Part shown: positions 2,608-25,354 of the stretch, piece after piece
How the letters are laid out: each line of letters opens with the position of its first letter
Position numbering within the stretch: the first letter of the stretch is position 1
Assembly (NCBI GenBank): GCA_964476725.1
Contig: CAYZBZ010000002.1
Coordinates: forward strand, 1 to 56,057
Reading direction: 5' to 3'
DNA length: 56,057 nucleotides
Source: an uncultured Vicinamibacterales bacterium
GTDB taxonomy: Bacteria; Acidobacteriota; Vicinamibacteria; Vicinamibacterales; 2-12-FULL-66-21
Position numbers and translations under genes: made by a program
The notes under the pieces: model-generated
Told to the model about the DNA's origin: nothing
Databases searched by the model: none
Seen by the model: only the letters and a program-made list of their open reading frames with translations

Positions 2608-3489
2608 TTACAGCGCTCGCACCGCGGCCACGATGGCGTCGGCATTCCCGCTGACCACGTAGGCGATGCGGCCATCGCCGCCGATCACGTAGACGATGGA
2701 CGGGTGCGAGATGTCGCCGGTCTTCTCGTTGCGCACGCGCGGCACGCGCCAGCCGTTCAGCGTGCGCTCGACCTCCTCGGGCGCGCCCGAGAGAACGTGC
2801 GCATCTCCATCCAGGCCCCACTGCTTCGCGATCGACGCGAGGCGGCTTGGCGTGTCGCGCCACGGGTCCAGGGTCACGATGAGCACGCGGGGAGGATCGC
2901 TGCCGAGCCGGCGTCGAGCTGCCAGCACGTCAGCGACGATGAGCGGGCACACGGTCTGACAATGCGCGAATGCGAACGCGACAAGCACCGGCCGCCCGCG
3001 GGACGACTCCAGCGTGACCTCCCGTCCAGTCTGATCGGTGAGCGCCAGGGGAGGCGCCACGTCATTCACGCGCGTCAGCTGCGCTGCTGCGATCTCTCCC
3101 GGACTGGTTGGGAACGGCTCCAGGCCGGCGGTGCGCACGCGGGCAACAACGCTCCCGAGGCCGGCGAGGAGCAGGGCCGAGACGACGCCGACTGCCAGCT
3201 GGCCAGCGACCCGCGCCGTGGCCAGCGCCATCCCCTCTCGCAGGTCGGTTCCCCACACCCCGGCCAACAGCGCGATCATGCCGGCGGGTTGACCGACGAG
3301 CAGCACCCAGCCGCCCGCGTTCGGCAGGCGATCGGCCGTCGACCCGAAGCACACCTCACGCGTCCGCAGGAGCCACTCCGGCGCGGCACTGCCGACCGGC
3401 CAGAGCGCGAGCGCCCACCACGACGCGGTGATCACGACGATCGCCCCGAGCGCGGTTACGGCGGCCCACGCGCGCCCGGCCGCCATCAC
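2608..3489 (-). CDS. SCO/SenC copper chaperone with N-terminal membrane domain
   Basis: CQTVCP (CxxxC), TLDPWRDTP and distal His (ISHPS); overlaps the subunit I stop. Confidence 0.9.
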   Translation of the reverse strand: MMAAGRAWAAVTALGAIVVITASWWALALWPVGSAAPEWLLRTREVCFGSTADRLPNAGGWVLLVGQPAGMIALLAGVWGTDLREGMALATARVAGQLAVGVVSALLLAGLGSVVARVRTAGLEPFPTSPGEIAAAQLTRVNDVAPPLALTDQTGREVTLESSRGRPVLVAFAFAHCQTVCPLIVADVLAARRRLGSDPPRVLIVTLDPWRDTPSRLASIAKQWGLDGDAHVLSGAPEEVERTLNGWRVPRVRNEKTGDISHPSIVYVIGGDGRIAYVVSGNADAIVAAVRAL

Positions 3490-5258
3490 CCGATCCTCCA
3501 GAGGACCGACAGGATCTTCCAGTTCACGAAGAAGTAGACGACGAACGCCGCGAGGAACACGAACGCCAGTACGATCGTACCGGGGGCGGGTCCCATGGCG
3601 CCGGGCGCGTCACGGTGCAGTGCGGCGTTGCGGGCGTCGACATCCGGCGCGTGCACGGGCGGATGCGTGAGGCCGGCCGGCACGCCTGCCATCGCCACGC
3701 CCTTGAGGATTTCGCCGAGGGGCTCGCCGAAGAAGACGGACTTGACCGCGATCGCGACGAACAGGAAGGCGCCCGTGGCGGCGATCAGCCCGCCAAACGC
3801 CATGACCGCCAGGATGAGATCGACGATCGGATTGAATTGCACATCGAACGGCGCCTGGCTGAAGGTGATGTCCCAGTGGCGCCGGGGCACGCCGAAGCTG
3901 CCCGCGAAGGTCATCGACAGCGTGAAGATCAGCATGCCGCCGGCGAAGAGATACGGCTGGATCCTGGCGCCCTTCCAGAACGCCACCTTCTTCTGGAAGA
4001 TCAGGGGAATGAGGTAGTACGTGACGCCCATGAACGCCATGGCGGTGCCGCTCACCACCGTTGCATGGAAGTGTCCTGGAACACGCAACGTGTTGTGCAC
4101 CATGATATTGATCTGCTCGGTGCCGATCGTCACCCCGGTGATCCCGCCGACGAAGCCGAAGACGACGAGCGAGAACACGAGAGAGCTGAACCCCGGGTCG
4201 CCCCATGGCGCGCGGCGCAGCCAGTCGAACATGCCGTTGGTGAACCCGCGCAGGCGCATCCCGAGCTCCATCCCCGCCGGCACGGTGAAGCCGTGAATCA
4301 TGGAGGCGAGCACGGCCATGTACATGAAGTAGCTCGTGTTCACGACCTTCCAGGCGGGCCCCATGCCGGGGTCGACCAGCAGGTGGTGCGCCGACGCCAT
4401 CGAGATGAACAGGATGTACAGCACGAACGCCGATCGGCTGATCTTCTCGTTGAGCACGACCGATCCGATGGTGAGCGCGCCGAGCATGTACCAGATGGAC
4501 ACCATGGCGGCGACATTGATCTGCTGCGACGAGTGGCCAAGCCCCCACCAGATCATCCGGTAGATCTGCGGATCCACCTCCATCAACCCAAGCGACCAGA
4601 GGTAGGTCGGAATGTAGATGGCTGCACCGTGGACGAGGGTGATGACGGCGATGATCGCGGCCGTCATCGCGCCGTAGACCACCAGGGGCAGAGATCCCTC
4701 GTAAGTCCTCTCCCGCTTGGCCACGACGAGGTTCGCGAAGAAGACGCCGACCGTCACCAGGGCGCCGACCGCGAAGAAGATCACGCCCAGGTAGAAGTTC
4801 GGATCGGCCCGCAGGGGAACGTACGACGTGAAGAGGACATCGGCCCGGCCGGACCACATCATCGCCTCGACCATCAGCGCGCCGGCGAGCATCAGCGCGA
4901 AGGCGGCCCAGGAGGTCTTCGGCGCGCTGTTGCGCGCGTTGAGGAGCACCGTGCCGGCGAAGAACAGCACTGCCATCTCGAAGAAGAGGATGAAGAAGAT
5001 CAGCATGCTCATGCCGTGCACGCCGAGGATGCGGTAGAACCAGACAGCCGGGAGCAGGTGCACGGCCTGCCAGCGCGTCAGCACCAGCAGCACCGCGGCG
5101 ATGGCGCCGACGAGCAGCGACACCACCGAGGCCACGGCGTGCACCTTGATCAGGCGCTCGGCGCCGAGGTCGATGCGATACCCGGTGGCCGGGCAGGTCC
5201 GGAAACCGGCGCCGGCGCGCGCCGGTGCGACATCGGAGTCGCCGACTGGAGTAGTCAT
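3486..5258 (-). CDS. Heme-copper oxidoreductase subunit I, B-family-derived, eNOR-like nitric oxide reductase
   Basis: Six His ligands (H81, H242, H291/H292, H396/H398). Helix VI reads WWGLGHSSQQ, with Gln246 at the cross-linked Tyr position. Confidence 0.85.
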   Translation of the reverse strand: MTTPVGDSDVAPARAGAGFRTCPATGYRIDLGAERLIKVHAVASVVSLLVGAIAAVLLVLTRWQAVHLLPAVWFYRILGVHGMSMLIFFILFFEMAVLFFAGTVLLNARNSAPKTSWAAFALMLAGALMVEAMMWSGRADVLFTSYVPLRADPNFYLGVIFFAVGALVTVGVFFANLVVAKRERTYEGSLPLVVYGAMTAAIIAVITLVHGAAIYIPTYLWSLGLMEVDPQIYRMIWWGLGHSSQQINVAAMVSIWYMLGALTIGSVVLNEKISRSAFVLYILFISMASAHHLLVDPGMGPAWKVVNTSYFMYMAVLASMIHGFTVPAGMELGMRLRGFTNGMFDWLRRAPWGDPGFSSLVFSLVVFGFVGGITGVTIGTEQINIMVHNTLRVPGHFHATVVSGTAMAFMGVTYYLIPLIFQKKVAFWKGARIQPYLFAGGMLIFTLSMTFAGSFGVPRRHWDITFSQAPFDVQFNPIVDLILAVMAFGGLIAATGAFLFVAIAVKSVFFGEPLGEILKGVAMAGVPAGLTHPPVHAPDVDARNAALHRDAPGAMGPAPGTIVLAFVFLAAFVVYFFVNWKILSVLWRIG

Positions 5259-5836
5259 TGGGTGGCTCCTGACTTCGCAGCGGAGAGCGGCGCGTCCTCG
5301 ACGATGACGCGCCCGACCATCATGTGGTGGCCGATGCCGCAGAACTCGTTGCAGATGATGCGGAAATCACCCGAGGCGTTCGGGGTCACCCGCAGGCCGT
5401 AGTCGTACCCGGGTACGACCTGGAAATTGACGTTGATCGGGTAGAGCGAGAATCCGTGGTTGACGTCGAGCGACGAGAGGTGGAGCGTGTACTGCGCGTT
5501 CTTCTGCAGCCTGACGATCGGGAACCACTGGAACGAGACCGCCGCCAGATAGACGTCGGAGCCCGGCGGCGGCGTCACGATTGGCATGCCCCGGTCGTCT
5601 CCTGTCTGGTACTGCTTGATGAACTCGCTGACCCGTGCCCCGAACGCCTGCGGGGTCGTGCGGCTCCGGATGCCGGACGGATTCTGCCCGCCCTTCCAGT
5701 GCCAGAGCGGCATCATGGCGAACAGCACCATGCACCACGCAAAGGCGATCCCGACCCAGACCTTCTCCGACTTGTGCGCGGGTTTCCACCAGGTGCCCTT
5801 GGGAGCGTCGAGCCCGGTATGCGTTTCAGTGTGCAT
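5255..5836 (-). CDS. CuA-containing heme-copper oxidoreductase subunit II
   Basis: One TM helix, DVNHGF, and CuA motif CNEFCGIGHHMM. Confidence 0.92.
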   Translation of the reverse strand: MHTETHTGLDAPKGTWWKPAHKSEKVWVGIAFAWCMVLFAMMPLWHWKGGQNPSGIRSRTTPQAFGARVSEFIKQYQTGDDRGMPIVTPPPGSDVYLAAVSFQWFPIVRLQKNAQYTLHLSSLDVNHGFSLYPINVNFQVVPGYDYGLRVTPNASGDFRIICNEFCGIGHHMMVGRVIVEDAPLSAAKSGATQ

Positions 5837-5845: not shown

Positions 5846-6016
5846 TCACGGCAGTGGACCAGCCGGGAGGCTCGTGATCTCCCAGAGGCCCCAACCGGTG
5901 TAAAGGACGAGCATGATCAGGAGACCAGCTCCGAGCAGGAGGAACACGTTGTCGAACAGGCGCTGGCCGAGCGGCACGAGCTCGTCGGGAACGGGTGCCT
6001 GAAGGCGCGTTTTCAT
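5846..6016 (-). CDS. Small single-TM protein (56 aa), first gene of the heme-copper operon
   Basis: Hand translation MKTRLQAPVPDELVPLGQRLFDNVFLLLGAGLLIMLVLYTGWGLWEITSLPAGPLP*; GGAG RBS; ends 9 nt before subunit II; absent from the ORF track. Confidence 0.75.
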   Translation of the reverse strand: MKTRLQAPVPDELVPLGQRLFDNVFLLLGAGLLIMLVLYTGWGLWEITSLPAGPLP

Positions 6017-6090
6017 GTGACTCCCTGCGCGGCAAAAGGGACCGGATCGCGCGACGGCCGCCAGTTTATGCCGCGGCCCGCTGGCGCGGG

Positions 6091-6106
6091 TATGATGGCC
6101 GTCATA
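6091..6106. promoter_or_regulatory. Palindrome TATGA-N6-TCATA, CRP/FNR-family-like box
   Basis: TATGATGGCCGTCATA in the 128-bp divergent intergenic region. Confidence 0.45.
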
Positions 6107-6144
6107 TCCGCAGCCGATGGGGTCGGCAAGAATTCACTCAGTTC

Positions 6145-7713
6145 ATGGCTGCCGTCCCACGCCCCTCCGAGCGACTGGCGCTCCGGCTGCTGACAACGGC
6201 GGATGCGCTATGTAACCGCCTGTACGAGCAGCGGTTCAATCCCCTGTACCAGAGCGGCACGATCGTCGTCGCCCTCAATCTCGTGCTGCTCGTCACGGGC
6301 CTCTGGCTCATCCTCTTCTACCGCGTCGGCGCGCCGTGGGAATCGGTGGCGCGCCTGACCGCCAATCCGTGGCTGGGCAATTGGGTGCGCGGGCTGCACC
6401 GCTACGCCAGCGATCTCGCCGTCATCGCGACGGCCGCCCACGCCTTCCGCATGTTCGCGCAGGGACGAAGCTGGGGCGCACGCGCGATGGCGTGGATGAC
6501 CGGGTGCCTTCTCCTGTTGCTGCTCTTCATCTGCGGGTGGACGGGGTATGTGATGGTGTGGGACACCTTCGGCGAGCACCTCGCCCGCGAAGGGGCACGG
6601 ATGCTCGACACCCTGCCGGTCCTCTCCGAGCCGACGAGCCGGGCCTTTACCGGCGAGCAGCCCGTGCCGACGGTGTTCTTCTTCCTGAACCTGTTCGCTC
6701 ACATCGGCATCCCGCTCGCCATGGGCGTGGTGTTCTGGCTCCACGTCAAGCGGCTCGCGCGGCCCGCCCTGCTGCCGCCGCGCCCGGTGATGTGGCTGGT
6801 CGTCTCCGCCCTGACCGCAACCGCCATCGTCTGGCCACTGGAGATGGCGCCGCAGGCAGACCCGTTCGTGCTGCCCGCGAACGTCCCGGCCGATCTCTTC
6901 TTCGCGTTCTGGATCCCGCTCGTACAGGCCCTGAGCGGTGGGCAGGCGCTGCTCGTCGCGACGGGCCTCGGGGTGGCGCTCGTCGCCGTGCCCTGGTTCA
7001 CCGCGCGTCGCGGCGCGGCCGCGCCGCCTCCATCGGTGGTCGAGGAAGACATCTGCGTGGGGTGCGTCCAGTGCTCGATCGATTGCCCGTATGGGGCGAT
7101 CACCATGTTCGAGCGCACCAGCCGCCGCTCGGATCTCGTGGCCCGTGTCGACCCTGACCTCTGCGTGAGCTGCGGTATCTGTGCCGGATCGTGTCCCCCG
7201 ATGGGCGTCGGCCCGCCCGGCCGGGCCGCACGCGATCAGATGGCTGCGGTGCGCGAGTTCCTCGCCGCACCTGGACGGGGCGCCGGCGAGATCGTCGTCA
7301 TCTGCTGCGATCACGGCGCCGGGGGGTTTGCCTCCGATGTGGCGGCGGCCGGTGGCGTGCCGTATCCGATCGACTGTGCCGGCAACCTGCACACCTCGGT
7401 CGTCGAGACCCTCCTGCGCGCGGGTGCCGGCGGCGTGCTGATTCTGGCCTGTCCGCAGCGCGACTGCTGGAATCGCGAGGGGCCGCGCTGGCTCGGCGAG
7501 CGCCTGTATGGCGGGCGCGAAGCCGAGCTGCAGCCCAGGGTCGAGCGCGCGCGGTTTCGGATTGTGAACGTCAACGCGCGCGAACGAGGACGCGCGATCG
7601 AGGCCCTGCGCGCGTTTGCCGCCGAGATCGCCGCCTTGGGCCCGCCGGCCGAAGCTGAGGCGCCGGAGGCAGAGGTCCAGTGCGAACCGGCGCTCGCCGA
7701 GAGGGACTCATGA
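6145..7713 (+). CDS. Cytochrome b / 2x[4Fe-4S] ferredoxin / MvhD(FlpD)-like fusion membrane protein
   Basis: Two H-x13-H pairs (GLHRY..AHAF; FAHIG..LHVK); CVGCVQCSIDCP; CVSCGICAGSCP; then CCDHG, CAGNL, ACPQRDCWNREG. Confidence 0.85.
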   Translation: MAAVPRPSERLALRLLTTADALCNRLYEQRFNPLYQSGTIVVALNLVLLVTGLWLILFYRVGAPWESVARLTANPWLGNWVRGLHRYASDLAVIATAAHAFRMFAQGRSWGARAMAWMTGCLLLLLLFICGWTGYVMVWDTFGEHLAREGARMLDTLPVLSEPTSRAFTGEQPVPTVFFFLNLFAHIGIPLAMGVVFWLHVKRLARPALLPPRPVMWLVVSALTATAIVWPLEMAPQADPFVLPANVPADLFFAFWIPLVQALSGGQALLVATGLGVALVAVPWFTARRGAAAPPPSVVEEDICVGCVQCSIDCPYGAITMFERTSRRSDLVARVDPDLCVSCGICAGSCPPMGVGPPGRAARDQMAAVREFLAAPGRGAGEIVVICCDHGAGGFASDVAAAGGVPYPIDCAGNLHTSVVETLLRAGAGGVLILACPQRDCWNREGPRWLGERLYGGREAELQPRVERARFRIVNVNARERGRAIEALRAFAAEIAALGPPAEAEAPEAEVQCEPALAERDS

Positions 7714-8312
7714 CGCCACGCGATCGCGCCGCCGGCATCGCGCTCGCCGCCGCCGTCATGGCTGGCCTCGTCTGGGCGTCGAACGCCCCGATGACTGCGA
7801 ATCGCTCCCCGGACGCCATGCTGCGGCTGGCGTGGAGTGCCCGCCCGGAGCGCATCGAGAAGTGCCGGCAGCAGAGCGAGGAGGAGCTGGCGCGGCTGTC
7901 GCCGCACATGCGCCAGCCGGTCGCCTGCGAGGGCACGACCGCGGAGTATCGACTGCAGGTGCGGCGCGAGGGCGCGCTCGTCGCGGAACGGGTCGTACGC
8001 GGGGGCGGCCTGCGGCGGGACCGCCGGCTCTACGTGTTCGAGGAGCTCCTGCTGCCGCCTGGCGAGGCTACAGTGGAGGTCAGGTTCGATCGCGTGGATT
8101 CCAGTGACCCGGGCTTGGCCGCCGATCGGGGCGATCACGAGAGAGCCGAACGCGGGGCGACGTTCAACCCGGCGCAACGCGGCGAGGTCCCGCCGCACCT
8201 GTCGCTCGCGCGGCGCCTCCGCTTCTCGTCACGCGAGGTGATTCTCGTGACCTATGATTCGGATCGGCAGGAGCTCGTCGCGGTGCAAGGCTCTCCACGC
8301 GCGACTCGATGA
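7710..8312 (+). CDS. Membrane-anchored hypothetical protein coupled to the cytochrome b fusion
   Basis: ATGA overlap with upstream stop; N-terminal hydrophobic helix; two Cys (EKCR...VACE). Confidence 0.7.
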   Translation: MTPRDRAAGIALAAAVMAGLVWASNAPMTANRSPDAMLRLAWSARPERIEKCRQQSEEELARLSPHMRQPVACEGTTAEYRLQVRREGALVAERVVRGGGLRRDRRLYVFEELLLPPGEATVEVRFDRVDSSDPGLAADRGDHERAERGATFNPAQRGEVPPHLSLARRLRFSSREVILVTYDSDRQELVAVQGSPRATR

Positions 8313-8497: not shown

Positions 8498-9838
8498 ATG
8501 AACCGTCGTGTTTTTCTTTCGAAGACCGCGGCCGCGACCGCTGGACTGGCTGCAGCGTTCCCGGCGCGAAGTCACGCACAGACGAGCCCGAACGAGACGA
8601 TCAACGTTGCGATCATCGGGATTCGAGGCGACAACAAGGGCCATCCAACCTGGACCGCCCGGGGCCGCGGACAGGATCACTACGAACATCTGGCCGGTAT
8701 CAAGAACGTCCGCGTCACCCACGTCGTGGACGTGGACGAACGCCATTTCAAGACCTCGCTGTCTTTCATGAAGGAGAGATGGGGGGGAGATCCGAAGACG
8801 GAAACGGATTTCCGGCGCGTGCTCGACAATCGTGACGTCGATGCGGTGACCATCGCGGCTCCCGATCACTGGCACGCGCTCATGACGATCTGGGCGTGCC
8901 AGGCCGGAAAAGACGTCTACGTCGAGAAGCCCGTCAGCCACAACATCGTCGAGGGCCGACGGATGATCGAAGCCGCGCGACGACACAACCGGGTTGTCGC
9001 CGTCGGGACTCAGAGGCGCAGTGGCGCCGTTCTCGCCAAGGCCGTCCAGTTCCTGCGCGATGGTGGACTGGGCAAGGTCTACGCCGGAAAGACCGTGATC
9101 TATCGTCAAAGAGATCCCATCGGCGTGGTGGCGGACAGCCCGGTGCCGCCGGGGGTTCACTACGATCTGTGGCTGGGGCCTGCGCCGGCGCGTGCGTTCA
9201 ACGAAAACCATTTCCACTATCACTGGCACTGCTTCTGGGAATACGGCACGACCGACCTTGGCAACACGGGAGTCCACTCCCTGGATGCGGTGCGCTGGCT
9301 GCTTGGACAGCAGGAACATCCTCGCCAGGCGCACTGCATTGGCGGCCTTCATGAGGCGGGCGCCCGTACCGACCAGACGACGCCGAACACGCAATACGCC
9401 ACCTATCAATATGCGGACGGAACAGAGCTCCACTGCGACCTGCGGAACTGGTTCGGTGGCCCGGACGAGGCGCAGGGCGTCTACATCTTCGGCTCCAAAG
9501 GCTGGATGAAGGTGGGCGACGACAAGAGCCAGGTGTACTTCGGACCGAAGAACGAACCTGGCCCCACTCTGACCGCCGACGAGAAGCGCGACGCCGGGCA
9601 GGCGCACTTCGAGAACTTCATCGAGTGCGTACGCTCGCGCAAATCGGAGAATCTCAGGGCCGCCATCGAGGAGGGCCATCTGTCGACGACGCTCTGCCAC
9701 CTCGGGAACATTTCCTACCGGGTCGGCCGATCGGTGAAGTTCGATGGAGCGACCGAACGGTTCGTCGGCGACGAGGAGGCCGACAAGCTTCTCAGCCGCG
9801 CGTATCGCGCGCCGTACGTACTGCCCGAAAAGACGTAG
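8498..9838 (+). CDS. Tat-exported Gfo/Idh/MocA oxidoreductase
   Basis: NRRVFL Tat motif; APDHWH; DVYVEKP; GTQRRS; YDLWLGPAP. Confidence 0.92.
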   Translation: MNRRVFLSKTAAATAGLAAAFPARSHAQTSPNETINVAIIGIRGDNKGHPTWTARGRGQDHYEHLAGIKNVRVTHVVDVDERHFKTSLSFMKERWGGDPKTETDFRRVLDNRDVDAVTIAAPDHWHALMTIWACQAGKDVYVEKPVSHNIVEGRRMIEAARRHNRVVAVGTQRRSGAVLAKAVQFLRDGGLGKVYAGKTVIYRQRDPIGVVADSPVPPGVHYDLWLGPAPARAFNENHFHYHWHCFWEYGTTDLGNTGVHSLDAVRWLLGQQEHPRQAHCIGGLHEAGARTDQTTPNTQYATYQYADGTELHCDLRNWFGGPDEAQGVYIFGSKGWMKVGDDKSQVYFGPKNEPGPTLTADEKRDAGQAHFENFIECVRSRKSENLRAAIEEGHLSTTLCHLGNISYRVGRSVKFDGATERFVGDEEADKLLSRAYRAPYVLPEKT

Positions 9839-9885
9839 CGTTGCGTTGACGATCCAGGAAAGGCCGATCTTCCGAACGATTTCCT

Positions 9886-11145
9886 ATGACTCGAGCCCTC
9901 CTTTCCATCCCGGCCGGCTTCCTGCTTGCGCTCAGCGCGTCAGCGACACTCACGCCAACCGCTCCGACCGCCACCCGAGTGGAGAAGCGAGTGATCGCTC
10001 CCCCAGGGCCGAAGCCCGTGGGGCCCTACAGCCCTGGAATCCTCGCCGGCGACTTTCTCTATGTATCGGGACAGGGCGCACGCGACCGCGAGGGAACGCT
10101 CCCGGCGACCGTCGACGGGCAGGTGCGGCAGACCCTGGAGAACGTCAAGGTGATCGTGGAAGCCGCCGGACTCACAATGGCGCATGTGGTCTACAGCCAG
10201 GTGTACCTGGACAACATCGCGAATTACGCAGCGATGGACAGCCTTTGGAGGGAGTATTTTGGCAAGGCACCGCCCGCGCGATCGGTCCTCGGTGTTTACA
10301 GAATGCCGACGGACACTCCGGTGGAGATCAACGCGGTCGCCTACCGCGACCTGTCCCGCAGGAAGCTCGTAGTCCCGGCCGGGTACCCGCGGCGCCTCTC
10401 CTGGACCCCGGGCGTGATGGCCGGCGACCGGCTCTATTTGTCAGGATCCTTCGGTGCTGATGTTGCCACGGGCAAGGTCCCCGACGATCCCGCCGCGCAG
10501 GTGCAGCTGGCGCTCGACAACATGAGACAGACTCTGACCGCGGCGGGCATGGATTTCCGCCACGTGGTGTTCGTCAACCCGTACCTGACGGACAAGGCCT
10601 CGAGCCGGATGAACGACATCTACGCGAAGCATGTCGAATTCGGGAACACGCCCGCGCGCGCGACCATTCGCGTCACGAGCCTGCCGGGCGGCAACACGAT
10701 TGAGTTCACCGGCGTGGCAATCGCCGATCTGTCGAAGCGGCTGGCAGTCCGGCCCGGGAACATGAGACCGAGCGCGACGGCCAGCCCGTGCGTCTTTGCT
10801 GACGACACGTACTTTTGTTCCGCGAAGGGGCCGTTCACTCCCGGACCGGGGAGCACGCAAGGGATCTATGCGGCAACCGTCGAGGCGCAGGTCCGGCAGA
10901 CGATGCGGAACCTGCTCGACGGCCTCGAAGAAGCCGGATTGAGTTTTTCCCACGTGGTCGCCACCAACGTCTACCTGGACGACATCAACGACTTCCCGAG
11001 AATGAACCGGGTGTACGCGCAGTACTTTCCCGAAATGTTCCCCACGCGCACGACAGTCGCGCCGTCGGCCCCCATCGACCGCGAGCCGGCGAACGAGGAC
11101 ACGTACCCGGGCCTCGAGCAGATTTCCCTGGTTGCCGTGAAGTAA
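9886..11145 (+). CDS. Secreted protein with three tandem RidA (YjgF/YER057c/UK114) domains
   Basis: Signal-like N-terminus; three repeats with Q..Q.L.N and PARS/PARA/PTRT motifs plus C-terminal Glu. Confidence 0.88.
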   Translation: MTRALLSIPAGFLLALSASATLTPTAPTATRVEKRVIAPPGPKPVGPYSPGILAGDFLYVSGQGARDREGTLPATVDGQVRQTLENVKVIVEAAGLTMAHVVYSQVYLDNIANYAAMDSLWREYFGKAPPARSVLGVYRMPTDTPVEINAVAYRDLSRRKLVVPAGYPRRLSWTPGVMAGDRLYLSGSFGADVATGKVPDDPAAQVQLALDNMRQTLTAAGMDFRHVVFVNPYLTDKASSRMNDIYAKHVEFGNTPARATIRVTSLPGGNTIEFTGVAIADLSKRLAVRPGNMRPSATASPCVFADDTYFCSAKGPFTPGPGSTQGIYAATVEAQVRQTMRNLLDGLEEAGLSFSHVVATNVYLDDINDFPRMNRVYAQYFPEMFPTRTTVAPSAPIDREPANEDTYPGLEQISLVAVK

Positions 11146-11265
11146 GCCGTACCGGCCGCCACGACAGAGTGGACGAGGACCGCGGCTCGCGATACATTGT
11201 CCCCGCGCCCTGCGAGCGCCGTCGTGCCGGATCCCCGCGATCGGGAGGGCACACAGGAGGCGTCC

Positions 11266-11706
11266 ATGTGGAAACGAGATAAGGCGGTCACGTCCTCGAA
11301 CGCAGTTCCCGACGCTTCCGCCGATCGACCGCCGTCCGACCGCAGACCCCCGGACAATCTCGTCATGGATCTGGGCAAGTCCGTCATGATCAAAGGCGAG
11401 ATCAGCGCCTCGGAGGATATGACAATCTACGGGCAGATGGAGGGACGTGTCACCCTGCCGGGCCACACGCTGACCATCGGGCCGCATGCCGACATCAAGG
11501 CGGCCATCGTGGCAAAGACCGTGGTGATCCACGGCGCGGTGACGGGGAACGTGACGGCCGGCGAGAAGGTCGACATCCGGACCACCGGCGCGGTCGTCGG
11601 CGACGTGATGTCGCCGCGCCTGACGATTGCGGAAGGCGGGTGCCTGTGCGGCAACGTCGAGATGCCGCACGCGCGCTCGGGCCAGCGTCCAACGTCCGCC
11701 GCGTGA
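11266..11706 (+). CDS. Bactofilin (polymer-forming cytoskeletal protein)
   Basis: LGKSVMIKGEISASEDMTIYGQMEG, LTIG, VVIHGAVTGNV, IAEGG; AGGAGG RBS. Confidence 0.9.
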   Translation: MWKRDKAVTSSNAVPDASADRPPSDRRPPDNLVMDLGKSVMIKGEISASEDMTIYGQMEGRVTLPGHTLTIGPHADIKAAIVAKTVVIHGAVTGNVTAGEKVDIRTTGAVVGDVMSPRLTIAEGGCLCGNVEMPHARSGQRPTSAA

Positions 11707-18507: not shown

Positions 18508-19521
18508 TCAGCCGGCGAGGTCGACCAGCACTTTCATGACCGGCCCACCGCCGAGCGCCTCCTCCATCCCTTTTTGCAGATCCTCCAGCGGGATGACGCG
18601 GCTCACCAGCGGTCCGGCGACGACACCTCCCGTCGACGCCAGACGAATCGCTTCTTCCCATGCCGCTCGGGTATAGAGACGACTGCCGTGCATCCTGAGC
18701 TCGCGGGCGAACATGGCGTAAAGATTCACGGGCACCGGACTGGCGTGGATCGCGATCACGCTGACCGTGCCCCAGACTCGCACCACGTCGGTCACGAGCC
18801 GGGCCGCCGCCGCGTCGCCGGTGACTTCGAATGCCACATCGGCTCCGTCGCCGTCGGTCCACTCATTGACGATGCGGACGGCGTCCTGTCCCGGCCCGAT
18901 CGTTTCCAGCCCGAAGCGGTTCAGCATCTGGACGCGATGCGCGTTTATCTCCACGACCTTGACGCGCGCGCCGCGGTGGCGACAGACGAGCGCAATCAGG
19001 CAGCCGATGGGACCACCGCCAAACACGACGACGGTGTCGCCGGCCTTGACGTCCGCGCGCGCCACGTCGTGGGTGGCGACGGCAAGCGGTTCGATGAGCG
19101 GCGCATCGTCGTCGCTGATCGAATCCGGCACCTTCAATAGTCGATCTGCGGGGACCGTCCAGTATTCCTGCATGCCCCCGGGCACGTCCACACCGAGCAC
19201 TTTCAGGTTGTGGCACAGGTATGTCGCGCCCATTCGGCAGGCCCTGCAGGTCCCGCAGAACAGCACGGGCTCCACGACGACGCGATCGCCCTCGGCGAAG
19301 CCGCTGCCGGTCGGTGCTGTCATGACTTCGGCGAAGACCTCGTGGCCGATGATCCCGCCTTTCGGGACGCGATGATCGAGATGTCCCTGGTAAATGTGCA
19401 GGTCGGTGCCGCAGATCCCCACGCGTCGCACGCGCAGGAGCGCCTCGGCCGGTCCAGGCGCCGGCATGGGGGCGGAGCCGGTGCGAAAGGTGCGATCCCC
19501 ACGGTAGTACGACGCTCGCAT
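18508..19521 (-). CDS. Zinc-dependent alcohol/sugar dehydrogenase (MDR family)
   Basis: GICGTD, GHE, CGTCRAC..C, GGGPIG. Confidence 0.92.
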   Translation of the reverse strand: MRASYYRGDRTFRTGSAPMPAPGPAEALLRVRRVGICGTDLHIYQGHLDHRVPKGGIIGHEVFAEVMTAPTGSGFAEGDRVVVEPVLFCGTCRACRMGATYLCHNLKVLGVDVPGGMQEYWTVPADRLLKVPDSISDDDAPLIEPLAVATHDVARADVKAGDTVVVFGGGPIGCLIALVCRHRGARVKVVEINAHRVQMLNRFGLETIGPGQDAVRIVNEWTDGDGADVAFEVTGDAAAARLVTDVVRVWGTVSVIAIHASPVPVNLYAMFARELRMHGSRLYTRAAWEEAIRLASTGGVVAGPLVSRVIPLEDLQKGMEEALGGGPVMKVLVDLAG

Positions 19522-19539
19522 CAGGCCAGTCTCCGTTGT

Positions 19540-20409
19540 TCACCGACGTTGCGGCCGCTGGATCAGCGGGACCCTGGGGTCCGGTGGGGGCCAGCTGGCG
19601 CGCAGGTGAGCGTACCGCGGATCGTCGGTTGCCGCCATCGCTCGAAAGCTGCCGGCCAGCGTGTTGAGGTAATAGGCGTCGTAGCCTGGCGCCGCGACAA
19701 ACGGGTGATAGCCGTCGCGCACGATCACGAGATCGCCATCAGTGACTCTGAGTGTCTGATCCGAACGTCCATCCGCCGTGTAGAGACGCTGTATTCCGTA
19801 ACCGTCCGGACCGCTGAAGCGATAGTAGTACGTCTCCTCCAGATCCGCTTCGACCGGCGGCGCATGCCGGTCGTGCTTGTGCGGCGGATAGCTGGACCAG
19901 TTGCCGGCGGGCGTGAGGACCTCGCAGACCAGCAGGCGGTCGGCAGGCGCGGCGGGTGGGAGGATATCGATGATCTGGCGAGTGGCGTTGCCACCGCCGC
20001 GGACCTCCAGCCCGCAGTCCTCGGGCCTGATCAGCCGCGCCGGAAATCGTTTCGCCGAAGGTGACTGGCAGACGGCCATCTCGGTGCCACGGCGGGCGCG
20101 CACCTCGAATGCGGTTCCCGGCGGCAGATAGATCGCATGCGGGTAATCCGTGAAGACGTCGCGGCGTGGCCCGAGGGGCACGGTCCTGCGCTGGCCGGGC
20201 GACCACGTCACCGACGCCAGCCCGGAGAGTAGAACCATGCACACTTCATGACGGCTGGTACGTCCGCTCCACGTGTCTCCACCGGCGATCTGCCGGACCG
20301 AAAACCCGACCAACTCCCATCCGGCCCGACGCGGCGTCAGAGACACCTGCGTTCCGGATTGTCCCTTTGGCACCGGCCGTGTGCGCAGCAAAGATGTCGC
20401 GTTCTTCAT
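19540..20409 (-). CDS. iolB: 5-deoxy-glucuronate isomerase
   Basis: GNWSSYPPHKHD, LEETYY, GYHP motifs. Confidence 0.95.
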   Translation of the reverse strand: MKNATSLLRTRPVPKGQSGTQVSLTPRRAGWELVGFSVRQIAGGDTWSGRTSRHEVCMVLLSGLASVTWSPGQRRTVPLGPRRDVFTDYPHAIYLPPGTAFEVRARRGTEMAVCQSPSAKRFPARLIRPEDCGLEVRGGGNATRQIIDILPPAAPADRLLVCEVLTPAGNWSSYPPHKHDRHAPPVEADLEETYYYRFSGPDGYGIQRLYTADGRSDQTLRVTDGDLVIVRDGYHPFVAAPGYDAYYLNTLAGSFRAMAATDDPRYAHLRASWPPPDPRVPLIQRPQRR

Positions 20410-20421
20410 CGGCTCAGTCCC

Positions 20422-21462
20422 TCAGGCCTGTGCGGTATCGGCGATTGACGAGACGGTCACCGGGTGGCCCGTCTGATAGGCCCGCGTCGCGGCCACCGCA
20501 ATCCGCAGCGCTTCCACGCCATCGTCCACGGTGATCGGCGGCTTCCGACCCTGGAGCACATTCTGTGCAAAGCTCTCGAGCTGCGCCGTGTAGGCGTCGC
20601 GGAACCGCTCCATGAAGTACGGGACCGTATCATGGGTCACCCCGCTCCTGGTCATCACCATCAACGGCGTCTCGCGCAGGTACCCGATGCGCAACGTTCC
20701 CTGCGTGCCGAGCAACTCCGTCGTGATGTCGTATCCGTAGATACCGTTCCGGGTCAGATCGACGACACCGAGACGGCCGCTGGCGAACACGAGACTGACC
20801 ACGGCGTTGTCGATGTCGCCGACCGCCCCCAGCTCTGGATACGCGAGCACGCCCCCGATGGTCTGGACCGTCGCGACCTCGCCCATGAACCATCGCGCGA
20901 GATCGAAATCGTGGATGCCCATGTCGATGAGCAGCCCGCCGCTGCTTTTCGGGTTCGCGTACTCCACCGAGGGAGGAAACGGATCCCGGGAGGTGGACTT
21001 GAAGACCACGGCGTCGCCGATCTCGCCCGCGCCCAGGCGCTCTTTCGCCGCCACGTAACCGCGATCGAACCGTCGCATGAACCCAAGCTGGAAAAAGACG
21101 CCAGACTGCTGAACAGCCCGCCGCATCGCGAGCGCCTCGTCCATCGTGATTGCCAGCGGCTTCTCGCAGAAGATCGCCTTCCCTGCGGCAGCCGCGGCCT
21201 TCGTCAGCTCGCCGTGCGTCGCCGTCGGCGTGACGATCACGACCGCATCCACCGAGGGATCGGCAATGAGGTCGCGGGGGTCCGTATACCCGCGGGGCAC
21301 CTCGAACGCGCGCGTGACGTCATCGACCGCGGCTTTGTCCACGTCGGCCACGGCAACCAGCCGCATGCACGCGATTCGCGTCGCCAGATCGCGCGCGTAC
21401 ACGCGTCCGAGACGGCCCAACCCCATCAAGCCGACGTTCAGCTTTGTCGCGCTCTTCGCCAC
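20422..21462 (-). CDS. iolG: Inositol 2-dehydrogenase
   Basis: GLGRLG, CEKP, GFMRRFD, SRDP, DMGIHDFD, YGYD; iol context. Confidence 0.85.
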   Translation of the reverse strand: MAKSATKLNVGLMGLGRLGRVYARDLATRIACMRLVAVADVDKAAVDDVTRAFEVPRGYTDPRDLIADPSVDAVVIVTPTATHGELTKAAAAAGKAIFCEKPLAITMDEALAMRRAVQQSGVFFQLGFMRRFDRGYVAAKERLGAGEIGDAVVFKSTSRDPFPPSVEYANPKSSGGLLIDMGIHDFDLARWFMGEVATVQTIGGVLAYPELGAVGDIDNAVVSLVFASGRLGVVDLTRNGIYGYDITTELLGTQGTLRIGYLRETPLMVMTRSGVTHDTVPYFMERFRDAYTAQLESFAQNVLQGRKPPITVDDGVEALRIAVAATRAYQTGHPVTVSSIADTAQA

Positions 21463-21489
21463 GTGCCTCTCCTGATTCGTGATCCCCGG

Positions 21490-22458
21490 TTACTGTCCCG
21501 TTGCCGTCCCGGTTTTTGTGACGAGCTCGATAGGTACGGTTTGCTCACGCGGAACCGGCTCCGAGCGCAGCAGACGTGCCGCAGCCTCGACCGCCAACCG
21601 TCCCATGTCGCGAGGCGACTGCGCCATGGATGCTTCCATGCGACCCGCCTCGATTGCCTTGCGCGCATCGTCGAGCGCATCGAAGCCGACGACGCGGATG
21701 CGGCCGGCGCGTCCGGCAGCGGCGACGGCCTCGACCGCGCCCAGCGCCATGAGGTCGCTGCAGGCAAACAACGCGTCGATGTCGGCGTGCGCCTGGAGCA
21801 TGTTCTGGAACACGGTAAATCCCTGGTCGCGTTCCCAGTTCGCGGGCTGGCTCGCGACGATTGTCATCCCCGGGTACTTCTTGACCGCGTCGCGAAATCC
21901 GCGCAGCCGGGAGTCGCCGGTCTCGTGTCCGGGAATCCCCTCGAGGACGGCGATACGAGCCTTGCCGCCGGTGGACCTGGCGAGATACTCGCCGGCCAGC
22001 CTGCCGCCCTCGTAGTTGTCCGAGCCGACGAAGGATTCGATCTTCAGGTTGTTCTCCGCTGCCGCTTTGGGGTCCACACGCGTGTCGACGACAATCACCG
22101 GGACATTGGCCCGATTCGCCTTGGCGATGGCCGACACGATTTCGCGTGAACCGCTGGGGGTCACGATCAGCACACGCACGCCGGTCTGCAGCAGGTTCTC
22201 GATAATCTGCATCTGCTTCTCGACGTCGATCTCGCGCTCGGCGGCTTGCACGACGAGCTGGATGCCGGCGCGGTCGGCGGCCTCCTGCGCCCCACGCTGC
22301 ATGTCGAGAAAGAAGGGATGGTTGAGCGTCTTCATGACGAACGCCACACGCGGCGCGGCACTCGTCGCCGTCGAGCCGTGGCGATTACACCCCACGGCGA
22401 CCCACACGATGAGCAGTCCAAGCAACACTTTGTGCGCAAGTCTTATCATTGCCACCAT
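21490..22458 (-). CDS. Sugar ABC transporter substrate-binding lipoprotein (RbsB-like)
   Basis: Lipobox AVGC; KTLNHPFF, GSDNY.GG, VVGFD. Confidence 0.92.
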   Translation of the reverse strand: MVAMIRLAHKVLLGLLIVWVAVGCNRHGSTATSAAPRVAFVMKTLNHPFFLDMQRGAQEAADRAGIQLVVQAAEREIDVEKQMQIIENLLQTGVRVLIVTPSGSREIVSAIAKANRANVPVIVVDTRVDPKAAAENNLKIESFVGSDNYEGGRLAGEYLARSTGGKARIAVLEGIPGHETGDSRLRGFRDAVKKYPGMTIVASQPANWERDQGFTVFQNMLQAHADIDALFACSDLMALGAVEAVAAAGRAGRIRVVGFDALDDARKAIEAGRMEASMAQSPRDMGRLAVEAAARLLRSEPVPREQTVPIELVTKTGTATGQ

Positions 22459-22471
22459 CGCACCTCTCCGG

Positions 22472-23422
22472 TTACCGGCGACGCCGCTTCAGCGACATGT
22501 CTACGAGAACAGCTCCGATAATCACGGCACCGATGACCACCTGCTGAAAGAACGACGACACGTTGAGCAGGTTCAGCCCGTTCCTCAGCACACCCATGAT
22601 GAGCGCGCCGATCAGCGCGCCCATGAGCGACCCTTCGCCTCCCATCAGGCTCGTGCCGCCGATCACCGTCGCGGCAATCGCGTCGAGCTCGTACATCGTG
22701 CCGGCCGTCGGCTGCGCCGAGTTGAGGCGCGCCGTCAGGATGACAGCCGCAGCGGCGCTCATCAGGCCCGCGACTCCGTAGATCATCGTCTTGTGAAAGC
22801 GCACCTGTACTCCTGACAGCCGCGCCGCCTCTTCGTTGCCGCCAATTGCATAGGTCGCCCTTCCAAAGACCGTGCGGGCGAGCACGAAGTGCGCCACAGC
22901 GTAGATCAGAACGGTGATGATGACCGGGGCGGGCACCATCAACACGCGGCCGGTGGCCAGGGTGCGAAACCCTTCGCTGAACCCTGAGATCGGGCGTCCC
23001 TCTGCCAGCATCAGCGCGGCGCCGCGTGCCACGCTCATCATTCCAAGCGTCGCGATGAACGGCGGCAGGCGCCCGAACGTCACGAGAAGGCCGTTTGCCT
23101 GACCGCACGACAGCCCCACGACGAGCGCGATGACAATCGCCGCCGGCGCCGGGAGACCGGCCCCGAGGGCCTGCCCGAGAGCGATGCCCGAAAGTGCCAC
23201 CACGGAGCCGACGGACAGGTCGATGCCGCCTGAAATAATCACGAACGTCATCCCGACTGCGACGATGGCGTTGATCGCGGTCTGCTCGAGCACGTTGAGC
23301 AGATTCGACACGGTCAGGAAGTGTGGCGTCGCCGCCCAGAGAACCAGACACAACGCCAGCAGGCCGGCGAACGTGCCGAGTTGCCGCGCCGAGCGCTCGT
23401 GCAGCCCGAAGGCGGACCACAT
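22472..23422 (-). CDS. Sugar ABC transporter permease (RbsC-like)
   Basis: GGIDLSVG, PPFIATLG, GGNEEAARLSG, IAATVIGG. Confidence 0.95.
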   Translation of the reverse strand: MWSAFGLHERSARQLGTFAGLLALCLVLWAATPHFLTVSNLLNVLEQTAINAIVAVGMTFVIISGGIDLSVGSVVALSGIALGQALGAGLPAPAAIVIALVVGLSCGQANGLLVTFGRLPPFIATLGMMSVARGAALMLAEGRPISGFSEGFRTLATGRVLMVPAPVIITVLIYAVAHFVLARTVFGRATYAIGGNEEAARLSGVQVRFHKTMIYGVAGLMSAAAAVILTARLNSAQPTAGTMYELDAIAATVIGGTSLMGGEGSLMGALIGALIMGVLRNGLNLLNVSSFFQQVVIGAVIIGAVLVDMSLKRRRR

Positions 23423-24918
23423 TACGACGCGACCCCCAAGGCCGCGTGCAGCACCCGCGTGTCGGTCGCCTCCTGCGCCGAGAGCTCCAGCTGCACGGCG
23501 CCGGCGCGCATGACCAGGATTCGATCGCTCATGCCCAGCACTTCGGGAAGATCCGACGAGATCATGATCATGCCCGCGCCGTTCTCGACGAGGCGATTCA
23601 TCAGCACATAGATATCCTGTCGCGCCGCTACGTCGATGCCGCGCGTCGGCTCGTCGAAGATGAGAATCTGGGCCTGCGCGGCGAGCCATTTCGCGAGCAC
23701 GACTTTCTGCTGGTTGCCGCCGCTCAGATGCAGGACGGCCTGCTCGGCCCCCGTGGTGCGTATCCGCAGGCTGGCAATCGCGTCGTCCGCCTCGCGCCGT
23801 TCGCGCCGGCGATCCATGACGCCGAAGCGCGACAACCAGGAAAGATGTGACATGGAGACGTTGCGCTCGACCGACAGGGGGAGCACGAGTCCCTGCTGCT
23901 TGCGATCCTCCGGCAGGAAGCCGATGCGCGCGCGCGCGGCGTCGGCCGGCGAGCTGATGTTGACGGCCGTGCCTCTGACGGCAATCCGGCCGCGATCGAC
24001 GCGATCGGCGCCCACGATCGCGCGTGCGAGGCGCGTGCGGCCGGCGCCGACCAGGCCTGCAATACCGAGGATCTCTCCGCGGTGAAGCACGAACGACACG
24101 TCCTGCAATGCGCCGCCTCCGAGTCCGTCGACGCGCAGGAGCTCCTCGCCGAGCGCGTGCGCGCGCCGCGGATAGTGGTCGGCCACTTCCCGATCCGCCA
24201 TCAGGCGGACAAGCTCCGAGACGGTCACGCCGGCAATGTCGCGCGTCGCCACGTGACGGCCGTCGCGGAGAACCGTCACACGCTGGCCGATGCGAAAGAC
24301 CTCGTCCATGCGGTGCGAGATGTACACGACCGCCACGCCGTTCGATGTCAGGCGGCTAATCGTCGTGAAGAGTTGCCCGACCTCGCGCTCGCTCAATGCC
24401 GAGGTGGGCTCGTCCATGACCAGAATCCGGGCGTCGTCGGCCAGGGCACGCGCGACCTCGACCATCTGCTGCTGTGCGAGGCGGAGGCCGCGCACCGGTC
24501 GGTCGGGATCGATGGAGAGGCCGATCCCGCTGAGTATCCGGTCCGCCTCGCGGCGCATCTGCGGCCAGTCCACGATTCCGGGCCACCGGGTCGGCGCCTT
24601 CCCGAGGAAGATGTTTTCGGCGACGGTCAGATGCGGGACGAGGCTCAACTCCTGATAGATCGTGCTGATGCCGAGCTTCCGTCCCTCGAGCGGGTTGCCG
24701 ATGTGGACGGCCGTCCCGCCGACGAGGATTTCCCCGGCGTCGGCAGGCACGGCTCCGCTCAGAATCTTCATCAGCGTCGACTTGCCGGCGCCGTTCTCGC
24801 CGAGGAGCACGTGCACTTCTCCCGCGCGCACCTCCAGGACGGCGTGGCTCAACGCCTGGACACCGGGATACGCCTTGCAGATTCCGCGCATCTGCAGCGC
24901 GAGAGGCGGGTCGGTCAT
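23422..24918 (-). CDS. Sugar ABC transporter ATP-binding protein (RbsA-like)
   Basis: GENGAGKST, MDEPT, LSGGNQQKV, DEPTRGID. Confidence 0.95.
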   Translation of the reverse strand: MTDPPLALQMRGICKAYPGVQALSHAVLEVRAGEVHVLLGENGAGKSTLMKILSGAVPADAGEILVGGTAVHIGNPLEGRKLGISTIYQELSLVPHLTVAENIFLGKAPTRWPGIVDWPQMRREADRILSGIGLSIDPDRPVRGLRLAQQQMVEVARALADDARILVMDEPTSALSEREVGQLFTTISRLTSNGVAVVYISHRMDEVFRIGQRVTVLRDGRHVATRDIAGVTVSELVRLMADREVADHYPRRAHALGEELLRVDGLGGGALQDVSFVLHRGEILGIAGLVGAGRTRLARAIVGADRVDRGRIAVRGTAVNISSPADAARARIGFLPEDRKQQGLVLPLSVERNVSMSHLSWLSRFGVMDRRRERREADDAIASLRIRTTGAEQAVLHLSGGNQQKVVLAKWLAAQAQILIFDEPTRGIDVAARQDIYVLMNRLVENGAGMIMISSDLPEVLGMSDRILVMRAGAVQLELSAQEATDTRVLHAALGVAS

Positions 24919-25128
24919 GGCTTTGGCGAAGCGCTTCGCTGACGCTCGTGGCGCCCCCGCCGGCGGGCCGCGGAGCGGCCCTGGCGCGTGCAGCACAGGC
25001 CGTGGCGTTCCGGCATATTTGGCGCGGTCCGGCGGCAGTATACGTCTTCGATCAGCCGGGCGCATCTTTCCTGCTAGACTGACCCGCGTCCCATGAGCGC
25101 CTGAGCGCGAAGTTGTCAAAACGCCCAG

Positions 25129-25325
25129 ATGGCCAACATCTACGATGTCGCCAAACGCGCGCGCGTGTCGGCCGCGACCGTTTCCGCCGTCGCGAACGAC
25201 AGCGCGTATGTCAGCCCCTCGCTGAAATCACGCGTCGAACAGGCGATCCGGCAGCTCAGCTACCGTCCCAATCTCGTCGCGCGCAGCCTGGCGCAGCAGC
25301 GGACGCGGACGCTGGGGATGGTGGC
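25129..25325 (+). pseudogene. LacI-family regulator truncated after the HTH/hinge
   Basis: MANIYDVAKRARVSAATVS...YRPNLVARSL..RTRTLGMV; no sugar-binding domain follows, and the frame runs out of phase over iolD. Confidence 0.85.
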
Positions 25326-25354
25326 GCTGAACATTCAGTGGGAGAACGACGGAC

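Follow-up and report, generated by a model that had tools for sequence, protein, structure and literature searches.

A probable eNOR-type nitric oxide reductase operon in an uncultured Vicinamibacterales bacterium

The eNOR family of nitric oxide (NO) reductases is said to go back to Hemp and Gennis in 2008. Its members are characterized by reduction of NO to N2O, no reduction of O2, and heme A_s at both heme positions. The enzyme of Rhodothermus marinus reduces NO and not O2, according to Murali et al. 2024 (PMC11214002); Dataset S1 of that paper gives its residues Q-245, S-318, H-321, Y-256, and E-(II)21 and sets Q-245 against Y-237. PMC8756737 likewise gives Gln in place of the cross-linked Tyr as diagnostic of eNOR, as the sequence-only reading of the present DNA had supposed. 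Dataset S4 includes Hydrogenobacter thermophilus among its eNOR references (WP_012962803.1), and in Dataset S8 a Vicinamibacterales genome of the family SCN-69-37 (SCN-69-37 sp003242705) has ENOR=1 along with nirK, nosD, and nosZ (PMC11214002). The titles and abstract openings listed for Vicinamibacter and nitric oxide reductase contained no mention of eNOR in Vicinamibacter, and the whole word "eNOR" was absent from PMC4770552. Identification of an eNOR is not new, the family having been published, biochemically tested, and already tabulated for the same order, Vicinamibacterales. Among solved structures, the B-family ba3 oxidase of Thermus thermophilus (PDB 1XME, 1EHK) is the best match in both sequence and fold. 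It has an extra small single-helix subunit, IIa.

The window, which is the whole stretch of 56,057 nucleotides analyzed, contains a minus-strand operon with the gene order 56-aa membrane protein, subunit II, subunit I, and SCO1 (Table 1). The 56-aa ORF stops 10 nt upstream of subunit II, the ORFs of the two large subunits share 4 bases, and the SCO1 start overlaps the subunit I stop. The sequence-only reading had assigned positions 3486..5836 to the enzyme, which holds for the subunit I/II gene pair but misses operon members on both flanks. Judging from residues, tree, and neighborhood, this operon very probably encodes an eNOR-type NO reductase, from a family that branched off from the B-family heme-copper oxidases.

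Table 1. Genes of the predicted reductase operon and of the divergent gene pair beside it
Feature	Position	Strand	Basis
SCO1/SenC copper chaperone, 293 aa, N-terminal membrane domain, CxxxC	2608..3489	-	PF02630 3.7e-24
eNOR-type subunit I (probable), 590 aa	3486..5258	-	Pfam COX1 7.8e-57, ba3 alignment, tree
Subunit II, 193 aa, one TM helix and cupredoxin domain	5255..5836	-	CuA ligands, ba3 alignment
56-aa single-TM ORF, likely small third subunit	5846..6016	-	ORF, tblastn, alignment A4, complex model
Cytochrome b fusion protein, divergently transcribed	5995..7713	+	domain matches, fold matches, model
210-aa protein, one N-terminal TM or signal-anchor segment	7680..8312	+	downstream of cytochrome b fusion gene

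The AlphaFold2 model of subunit I (pLDDT 90.8, pTM 0.91) had ba3 chain 1xme_A as its closest fold (TM 0.75/0.79), with an identity of just 22%–25% in the structural alignment. The top PDB match by phmmer was likewise T. thermophilus ba3 subunit I (E 4.6e-42). All 19 PDB matches at E<=0.001 were named cytochrome c oxidase, comprising 18 T. thermophilus ba3-type entries and 7deg, which we take to be from Aquifex aeolicus, and no NOR chain was among them. Every source name shown for the 120 closest proteins was also a cytochrome c oxidase name, which bears out the expectation that automated annotation would label such a gene cox. In NCBIfam the oxidase models scored far below threshold (49.6 bits for TIGR02891, whose cut-off is 670.75), and subunit I cannot be classified there because a fitting NOR-type model is missing.

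All six His ligands noted in the sequence-only reading were found in the ba3 alignment: H81 (lgvHgm / ltlHgv), the metal-B ligand H242, the pair H291 and H292 (saHHll / gfHHqf), and the pair H396 and H398 (vpgHfHatv / vpgHfHlqv). The helix VI stretch of subunit I, WWGLGHSSQQINVAAMVSIWY, does contain GHSSQQ where an HPxVY-type motif had been expected; phmmer paired "ghssqq" with ba3 "ghpivy" and placed the second Gln, Q246, at the position of the cross-linked Tyr. The motif was unchanged in 75/75 Gln-type rows of a 103-row alignment, and chance origin is therefore not an issue. Subunit I shares with ba3 a K-channel Ser and Tyr and differs from it in Tyr237 to Gln246, Val236 to Gln245, and Thr312 to His322; ba3-type rows have Ile, Ala, or Leu at the helix II site of Glu94, and B-family rows have Thr in place of His322.

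The subunit II gene encodes a complete CuA site, as claimed from the sequence. Its motif reads H127 ... C162-N-E164-F-C166-G-I-G-H170-H-M-M173, and the ligands H127, C162, E164, C166, H170, and M173 were unchanged in 25/25 aligned relatives. Like the ba3 partner, to which it aligned at E 5.3e-17, the protein has one TM helix, and its E24 pairs with E15 at the K-channel entry of ba3 subunit II. All five R. marinus eNOR residues have counterparts here: Q246, S319, H322, and Y257 in subunit I (numbering offset by one residue from that of R. marinus) and E24 in subunit II, with Y257, S319, and H322 being the K-channel-like residues of subunit I. This link to the assayed enzyme was made through published residue numbers and intermediate sequences rather than by direct alignment. 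The two systems also share the three metal-B His, both heme ligand sets, the CuA subunit, SCO1 in the operon, and the cytochrome c oxidase label. They differ in that the present locus has neither a CtaA nor a heme o synthase gene beside it, and in that its subclade almost always carries genes for the 56-aa protein and the cytochrome b fusion. Identity of subunit I to named Gln-type proteins was 39%–56% (39%–52% in A1, about 55% for the H. thermophilus-like group in A2); it was 86% to a protein that bears the name of Acidobacteria bacterium SCN 69-37.

A tree had been proposed as a check on the sequence-only reading. The maximum-likelihood tree had 56 rows, and its 30 Gln rows made up one side of a branch with support 100/99; subunit I lay deep within this Gln clade, outside the Tyr-bearing families, with a 91%-identical protein from a Vicinamibacterales MAG as its neighbor. 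Rows P0124 and P0125 (fragmentary or frame-broken), P0253 (two His ligands missing), and, for speed, 45 of the 75 Gln rows were left out, and the tree held no sequence bearing a Dataset S4 accession. A Tyr-retaining sister group (GHxxQY) from Hodarchaeales and Thermoproteota MAGs, presumably oxygen reductases, joined the Gln clade with support 95/95 and was 38%–44% identical to subunit I. It has E94, Q245, Y257, Y281, S319, and H322 in common with the Gln clade but keeps the cross-link Tyr and lacks Y310. Holding together the 16-row subclade of the query and four sister rows was rejected by the AU test (-61.8 lnL, p-AU 0.0007), the groups having been chosen once the tree was known; another constraint (p 0.12) was uninformative, since its split is compatible with the Gln clade. 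The placement, together with Gln246 and the five matched residues, upholds the eNOR-type reading.

Members of the Gln clade include a haloarchaeal protein from Natrarchaeobius and a locus protein 90% identical to Hydrogenobacter thermophilus WP_340690361.1, which is not the Dataset S4 entry WP_012962803.1. T. thermophilus plasmid proteins with a His/Lys low-spin ligand also belong to it, and such a ligand is described for "some eNORs" in PMC11214002. Gemmatimonadota MAGs were the source of most related loci. The window itself probably comes from a Vicinamibacterales acidobacterium, since the GltX hits that carry a name belong to this order (76%–77% identity).

Other families of the superfamily fit the residues less well. 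A B-family O2 reductase should have the cross-link Tyr in helix VI, where Gln246 is found, and sNOR and bNOR should have Asn there (N-243 and N-245 in Dataset S1). For nNOR, E-242 and a His/Met low-spin heme would be expected instead of Gln246 and His/His, and for gNOR, an active-site His replaced by Asp and a subunit II without CuA ligands, as opposed to the three His and complete CuA site observed (nNOR heme and gNOR traits from PMC11214002). Finally, cNOR and qNOR would bring a Glu ligand to FeB, a cytochrome c subunit or fused quinol domain, and C-family relatedness, while the partner here is a CuA cupredoxin.

For the protein studied, we infer NO reduction, lack of O2 reduction, heme type, metal B identity, and physiological role. 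The eNOR family suggests a mechanism in which CuA, loaded by SCO1, would be reduced by a periplasmic donor and would pass electrons to the low-spin heme (H81/H398) and on to the high-spin heme (H396) and the metal at H242, H291, and H292. Two NO molecules could be converted there to N2O and water. Since two electrons suffice, the His-Tyr cofactor would be dispensable, with Gln246 in its place. Protons would probably come from the cytoplasm via a K-channel-like path formed by E24 of subunit II, Y257, H322/S319, and Q246, and such uptake would make the step electrogenic.

Genes for nitrite reductase (nir), nosZ and other nos functions, CtaA, and CtaB were not found in the 56 kb window, in agreement with what had been read from the sequence for nir, nos, and ctaA; the window thus gives no sign of denitrification or heme a synthesis. 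The search comprised a Pfam scan of 46 ORFs picked by a greedy non-overlap rule (the sole method for nosZ) and tblastn with 11 marker proteins from related loci, namely two nirK-like, two nirS, CtaA, CtaB, Rrf2, Crp/Fnr, hemerythrin, NirDL, and NirJ-like radical SAM proteins, none of which matched at E<=1e-3. The FNR/Dnr-box pattern had 13 matches against 8.0 expected, with none in the operon intergenic region. Among 84 related loci, 10 had a nirS or nirK-like gene within 10 kb and 74 had neither; CtaA was encoded in 4/84 and heme o synthase in 13/84. Neighbors of the Thermus gene pair are Rrf2, cytochrome c, and a gene annotated as nitrite reductase. Within 6 kb, locus L055 (91% identity) carried a Crp/Fnr gene and a nirK-like gene whose TIGR02376 score of 198.5 bits falls short of the 296.3 cut-off.

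Could the enzyme still reduce oxygen, with the cross-link Tyr shifted from helix VI to helix VIII? In C-family oxidases this Tyr has moved to helix VII, and the distribution of Y310 and N307, present together in 316/317 Gln rows, in 0/14 rows of the Tyr-retaining sister group, and in no B-family rows, is the pattern that a migrated Tyr would give. Y310 presumably lies just before the residue of helix VIII that, in A-family structures, touches a His ligand of CuB, and the window, lacking nir and nos, resembles that of an aerobic sugar-using heterotroph. However, Y310 is kept across the whole Gln clade, including its Thermus and haloarchaeal members, and because of this conservation it is probably present in the assayed enzyme too; moreover, relatives occur in nirS, nirK, and Rrf2 contexts. 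Oxygen reduction is therefore a highly improbable function. Least probable is another small-molecule substrate (for instance NO dismutation, N2O, or peroxide) or an inactive relic. Function has been shown for just one or two family members, and the B-site metal is left unstated in the available parts of the eNOR literature, but the ligands and channel residues are all invariant in 75 Gln rows, which argues for purifying selection, and the operon, whose stop and start codons overlap, is intact and has assembly genes as neighbors.

The eNOR assignment is compatible with more than one physiological role. The same conversion of NO to N2O could serve NO detoxification or relief of micro-oxic stress in an aerobe rather than energy-yielding denitrification, a possibility that we consider somewhat unlikely. 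It would agree with the absence of nir, nar, nap, and nos from the 56 kb and with the related loci, where Rrf2 (NsrR-like, a weak match) or Crp/Fnr regulators were found in 31/84 and hemerythrin in 10/84, against nitrite reductases in 10/84; detoxification is also raised in the Ferrigenium preprint. On the other hand, nirK and nosZ accompany ENOR in the Vicinamibacterales genome of Dataset S8, a nirK-like gene lies near the closest locus, L055, and the conserved K-channel-like residues suggest energy conservation.

If Vicinamibacterales and Gemmatimonadota reduce NO with an enzyme labeled "cytochrome oxidase," their share is underestimated wherever N2O sources are budgeted from genes. This point is already in print for eNOR (PMC11214002, PMC8756737, and the Ferrigenium preprint), and the window adds one more correctly re-labeled member. 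The accessory genes could matter more. Nearly all members of the subclade have the 56-aa protein and the cytochrome b/FeS fusion, and these two could account for the connection of eNOR to the respiratory chain.

The 56-aa ORF was found by tblastn (E<=1e-6) in 74/83 Gln-type loci, and in 72 of these it shares the strand and has an upstream position. Its predicted binding to the reductase is supported by the complex model, which scored 0.94 against 0.22 for the best control. The SCO1 gene adjoins subunit I in 47/84 loci. The divergent fusion gene, present in 72/84 loci (70/80 genome loci), encodes a bc1-like di-heme cytochrome b with heme ligands H135, H149, H236, and H250, two [4Fe-4S] motifs, and an MvhD/FlpD-like domain with four conserved Cys. 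Fold matches of its model (pLDDT 83.3) were bc1 cytochrome b. Residues 1–51 of the model were below 50, and the true start of the gene is probably near position 6145 (Met51). Literature mention of such a cytochrome b/FeS/MvhD-like fusion was found for Ferrigenium only, in the preprint.

Taken jointly, these features would make the reductase of a large eNOR subclade (Acidobacteriota, Gemmatimonadota, Methylomirabilota, and Proteobacteria) the core of a conserved six-gene module rather than a two-subunit enzyme, a reading that is speculative and, as a whole, unlikely. The 56-aa protein would sit as third subunit on helices V–VIII of subunit I. A bc1-like cytochrome b that has no Rieske or c1 partner and is joined to a 2x[4Fe-4S]/MvhD-like domain in the cytoplasm would be dedicated to the reductase. 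It would connect NO reduction with either the quinone pool or a low-potential carrier of the cytoplasm, through bc1-independent electron supply or NO-driven reverse electron flow. Y310/N307, gained on loss of the cross-link Tyr, would give the NO-reducing site a novel second-sphere element. The 210-aa protein had no Pfam or NCBIfam match and fell in protein atlas clusters named "hypothetical protein" throughout; its gene is present in 39/84 loci.

Pfam assigned subunit I to COX1 (7.8e-57) and, weakly, subunit II to COX2 (21.9 bits); the NCBIfam matches for the pair were all far under the cut-offs of that database. The top relative of subunit I in a phmmer search of all PDB chains was the ba3 oxidase of Thermus thermophilus, a B-family oxygen reductase (E about 1e-41), and the alignment paired six His ligands (H81, H242, H291, H292, H396 and H398) with their ba3 counterparts. 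Since ghssqq of subunit I stands opposite ghpivy of ba3, Gln246 takes the place of the cross-linked Tyr. Subunit II aligned with ba3 subunit II (5.3e-17), retains H127, C162, E164, C166, H170 and M173, and carries E24 opposite ba3 E15; all these residues were invariant in 25 of 25 relatives. The six His ligands, the CuA subunit II and the helix VI GHSSQQ described in the sequence-only reading were thus confirmed. The AlphaFold2 model of subunit I (pLDDT 90.8, pTM 0.91) matched ba3 chains best (TM 0.73-0.81), followed by A-family oxidases.

Features of the window discussed in the text
Feature	Position	Strand	Remarks
Subunit I	3486-5258	-	590 aa; overlaps subunit II gene
N307 and Y310, helix VIII of subunit I	about 4329-4340	-	
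Subunit II	5255-5836	-	193 aa; overlaps subunit I gene
56-aa single-helix (single-TM) ORF	5846-6016	-	ends 10 nt before subunit II, outside the subunit pair
bc1-like di-heme cytochrome b / 2x[4Fe-4S] / MvhD/FlpD-like fusion	5995-7713	+	divergent from eNOR operon; probable start near 6145
210-aa protein	7680-8312	+	one N-terminal hydrophobic segment; no Pfam/NCBIfam family
Inositol/sugar catabolism cluster	18508-27223		IolB/KduI-family, GFO/IDH/MocA dehydrogenases, TPP enzyme, sugar-binding protein, ABC ATPase
Phage-type integrase fragment	36217-36855		
Two IS-type transposase genes	40047-41222 and 41288-42064		rve domains
tRNA-Ser	42625-42718		adjoins integrase/transposase genes
tRNA-Gln	50917-50990		

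Gln at the Tyr site defines eNOR subunit I (Schwartz et al. 2022, PMC8756737). The R. marinus eNOR residues Q-245, S-318, H-321, Y-256 and E-(II)21 (Murali et al. 2024, PMC11214002, Dataset S1) correspond to Q246, S319, H322, Y257 and E24(II) here, none of which varied among the 8 rows of an alignment of Gln-type proteins. The 75 Gln rows of a larger, 103-row alignment all carried Q246 and Y257, with S319 in 74 of them and H322 likewise in 74.

Among 1.84 billion cluster representatives, 1338 proteins matched at E<=0.001, and those of full length formed four motif groups: GHxxQQ, to which the query belongs; GHxxQY, retaining the Tyr and 38-44% identical to the query; HxxHY; and the canonical B-family GHPxVY (24-32%). 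The query was 86% identical to a protein from 'Acidobacteria bacterium SCN 69-37'. Named anchors for the Gln type came from tblastn on plasmids, namely a Defluviimonas protein (HSSQQ, 51% identity) and T. thermophilus proteins (HGAQQ, 47-49%), the latter with Lys as the second low-spin ligand, a variant mentioned for 'some eNORs' by Murali et al. (PMC11214002). When GTDB species genomes were scanned with the Gln-group alignment, at least 599 stretches matched, at least 517 of which encode relatives; the best 80, kept as genome loci, were mostly from Gemmatimonadota, Acidobacteriota, Methylomirabilota and Proteobacteria MAGs.

In an IQ-TREE phylogeny of 56 rows (30 Gln, 4 GHxxQY, 4 HxxHY and 18 B-type), the Gln rows lay on one side of a branch with support 100/99, joined by the GHxxQY group (95/95), and the B-type rows were set apart (100/100). 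The sister of the query was a Vicinamibacterales MAG protein with 91% identity. Forcing its 16-row subclade together with the GHxxQY rows cost 61.8 log-likelihood units (p-AU 0.0007, for groups chosen after tree inspection), so that the Tyr-bearing grouping was rejected. Also in the Gln clade are a Natrarchaeobius protein and a locus protein that shares 90% identity with one from Hydrogenobacter thermophilus; the eNOR references of Dataset S4 (PMC11214002) include H. thermophilus and Halovivax asiaticus, a haloarchaeon of the same family as Natrarchaeobius, a correspondence at the level of species and family. The GHxxQY sister group (P0128, P0130, P0135 and P0146, from Hodarchaeales and Thermoproteota MAGs) shares E94, Q245, S319 and H322 with eNOR, keeps the cross-link Tyr, and looks like the O2-reducing stock that gave rise to eNOR.

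The Gln at the Tyr site, the matched Dataset S1 residues and the place within the Gln clade support the eNOR-type reading: the protein is an eNOR-family member and most likely an NO reductase. The enzyme could instead still be an oxidase with a relocated Tyr, Y310. Of the 317 Gln rows in a 355-row alignment, 316 had Y310 and N307, and all 14 Tyr-retaining sister rows lacked them, the pattern that such a relocation would give, although it represents one evolutionary event rather than 316 independent ones. The oxidase reading is very improbable, because Murali et al. (PMC11214002) report that no such Tyr migration was seen and that the R. marinus enzyme did not reduce O2. Returning to the eNOR assignment, pipelines mislabel this protein as cox, as had been anticipated: every name shown among the 120 closest proteins (85-93% identical, several from Vicinamibacterales or Acidobacteria MAGs) was an oxidase name. 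Earlier work has already described the family and its biochemistry, noted that it is mislabelled and recorded it in Vicinamibacterales; the window protein therefore adds one member and is of modest interest, and the parts worth follow-up are Y310 and the accessory module.

The fusion gene was present in 72 of 84 loci (70 of the 80 genome loci, and 29 of the 31 loci whose flanks are complete). It encodes four conserved heme-ligand His, eight Cys in two [4Fe-4S] motifs and four more conserved Cys in the FlpD/MvhD-like domain; no Rieske or cytochrome c1 gene adjoined it. The model of the fusion protein (pLDDT 83.3) shows six long helices in the membrane and matched bc1 cytochrome b chains best, and the FeS part would be cytoplasmic. 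A Ferrigenium straubiae preprint, the only text found in the literature that names such genes in an eNOR operon, calls them 'rather unusual', and in this eNOR subclade they are the rule. The 210-aa protein, which enters the neighbour counts as a 190-aa protein without a known family, was present behind the fusion gene at 39 of the 84 loci and may be the preprint's 'eNOR scaffold protein of unknown function'.

Of 83 Gln-type loci, 74 gave a tblastn match to the 56-aa ORF at E<=1e-6, and 72 of these matches lay upstream in the same orientation; RefSeq plasmid records annotate its counterparts as 'hypothetical protein'. A three-chain model with subunits I and II scored 0.94, against 0.22 for the best of 3 controls; 58 of 80 solved complexes reached this mark, as did 2 of 110 mismatched pairs, a calibration that is only rough because the job had three chains and used custom alignments. 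The runs agreed in at least 94% of contacts, with partner pLDDT of at least 79, and placed the protein against helices V-VIII of subunit I. The modelling supports binding of the 56-aa protein to both subunits. The solved ba3 oxidase contains a small subunit IIa, and the pass may therefore reflect likeness to that structure.

For the neighbourhood, ORFs were clustered across 84 loci, comprising the window, 3 loci from plasmids and the 80 from genomes, with cluster representatives named via Pfam and NCBIfam. Near subunit I were found subunit II (63 of 84 loci), SCO1 (47), Rrf2 regulator (21), heme o synthase (13), Crp/Fnr and hemerythrin (10 each), NirJ-like radical SAM (9), nirK-like (6), nirS (5), and NirDL and CtaA (4 each), and 10 of 84 loci had nirS or a nirK-like gene; the counts are lower bounds since many contigs are short. 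Within 6 kb, the closest locus, L055, has a Crp/Fnr gene as well as a nirK-like gene that scored under the NCBIfam cut-off, and in Thermus an annotated nitrite reductase adjoins the subunit pair. Dataset S8 (PMC11214002) lists Vicinamibacterales SCN-69-37 sp003242705 with ENOR=1, nirK, nosD and nosZ. The named relatives of the GltX encoded in the window belong to Vicinamibacterales, and the organism is probably an acidobacterium of this order. A Pfam scan of the 56-kb window and tblastn with markers (nosZ by Pfam only) found no nirK-like, nirS, CtaA, heme o synthase, Rrf2, Crp/Fnr, hemerythrin, NirDL or NirJ-like gene, in agreement with the earlier statement that nir, nos and ctaA are absent from it.

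The Thermus pair, with low-spin His replaced by Lys, lies at about 9300-11700 in the T. thermophilus megaplasmid loci L002 and L003, next to nitrite reductase, multicopper/cupredoxin protein, cytochrome c, Rrf2 and DUF542 genes, and is labelled cbb3-type or b(o/a)3-type oxidase in RefSeq. Four loci, two of them of the His/Lys variant, contained a second subunit-I-like ORF (L068 11667-13691, L079 11650-12942, L080 14821-16209 and L076 2152-3642), mostly directly downstream of eNOR subunit I, further downstream in L080 and upstream in L076.

The remaining genes of the window serve the breakdown of sugars and inositol or housekeeping, or belong to IS elements. The inositol/sugar cluster fits an aerobic heterotroph, and the stretch at 36217-42718 is probably an integrated mobile element.
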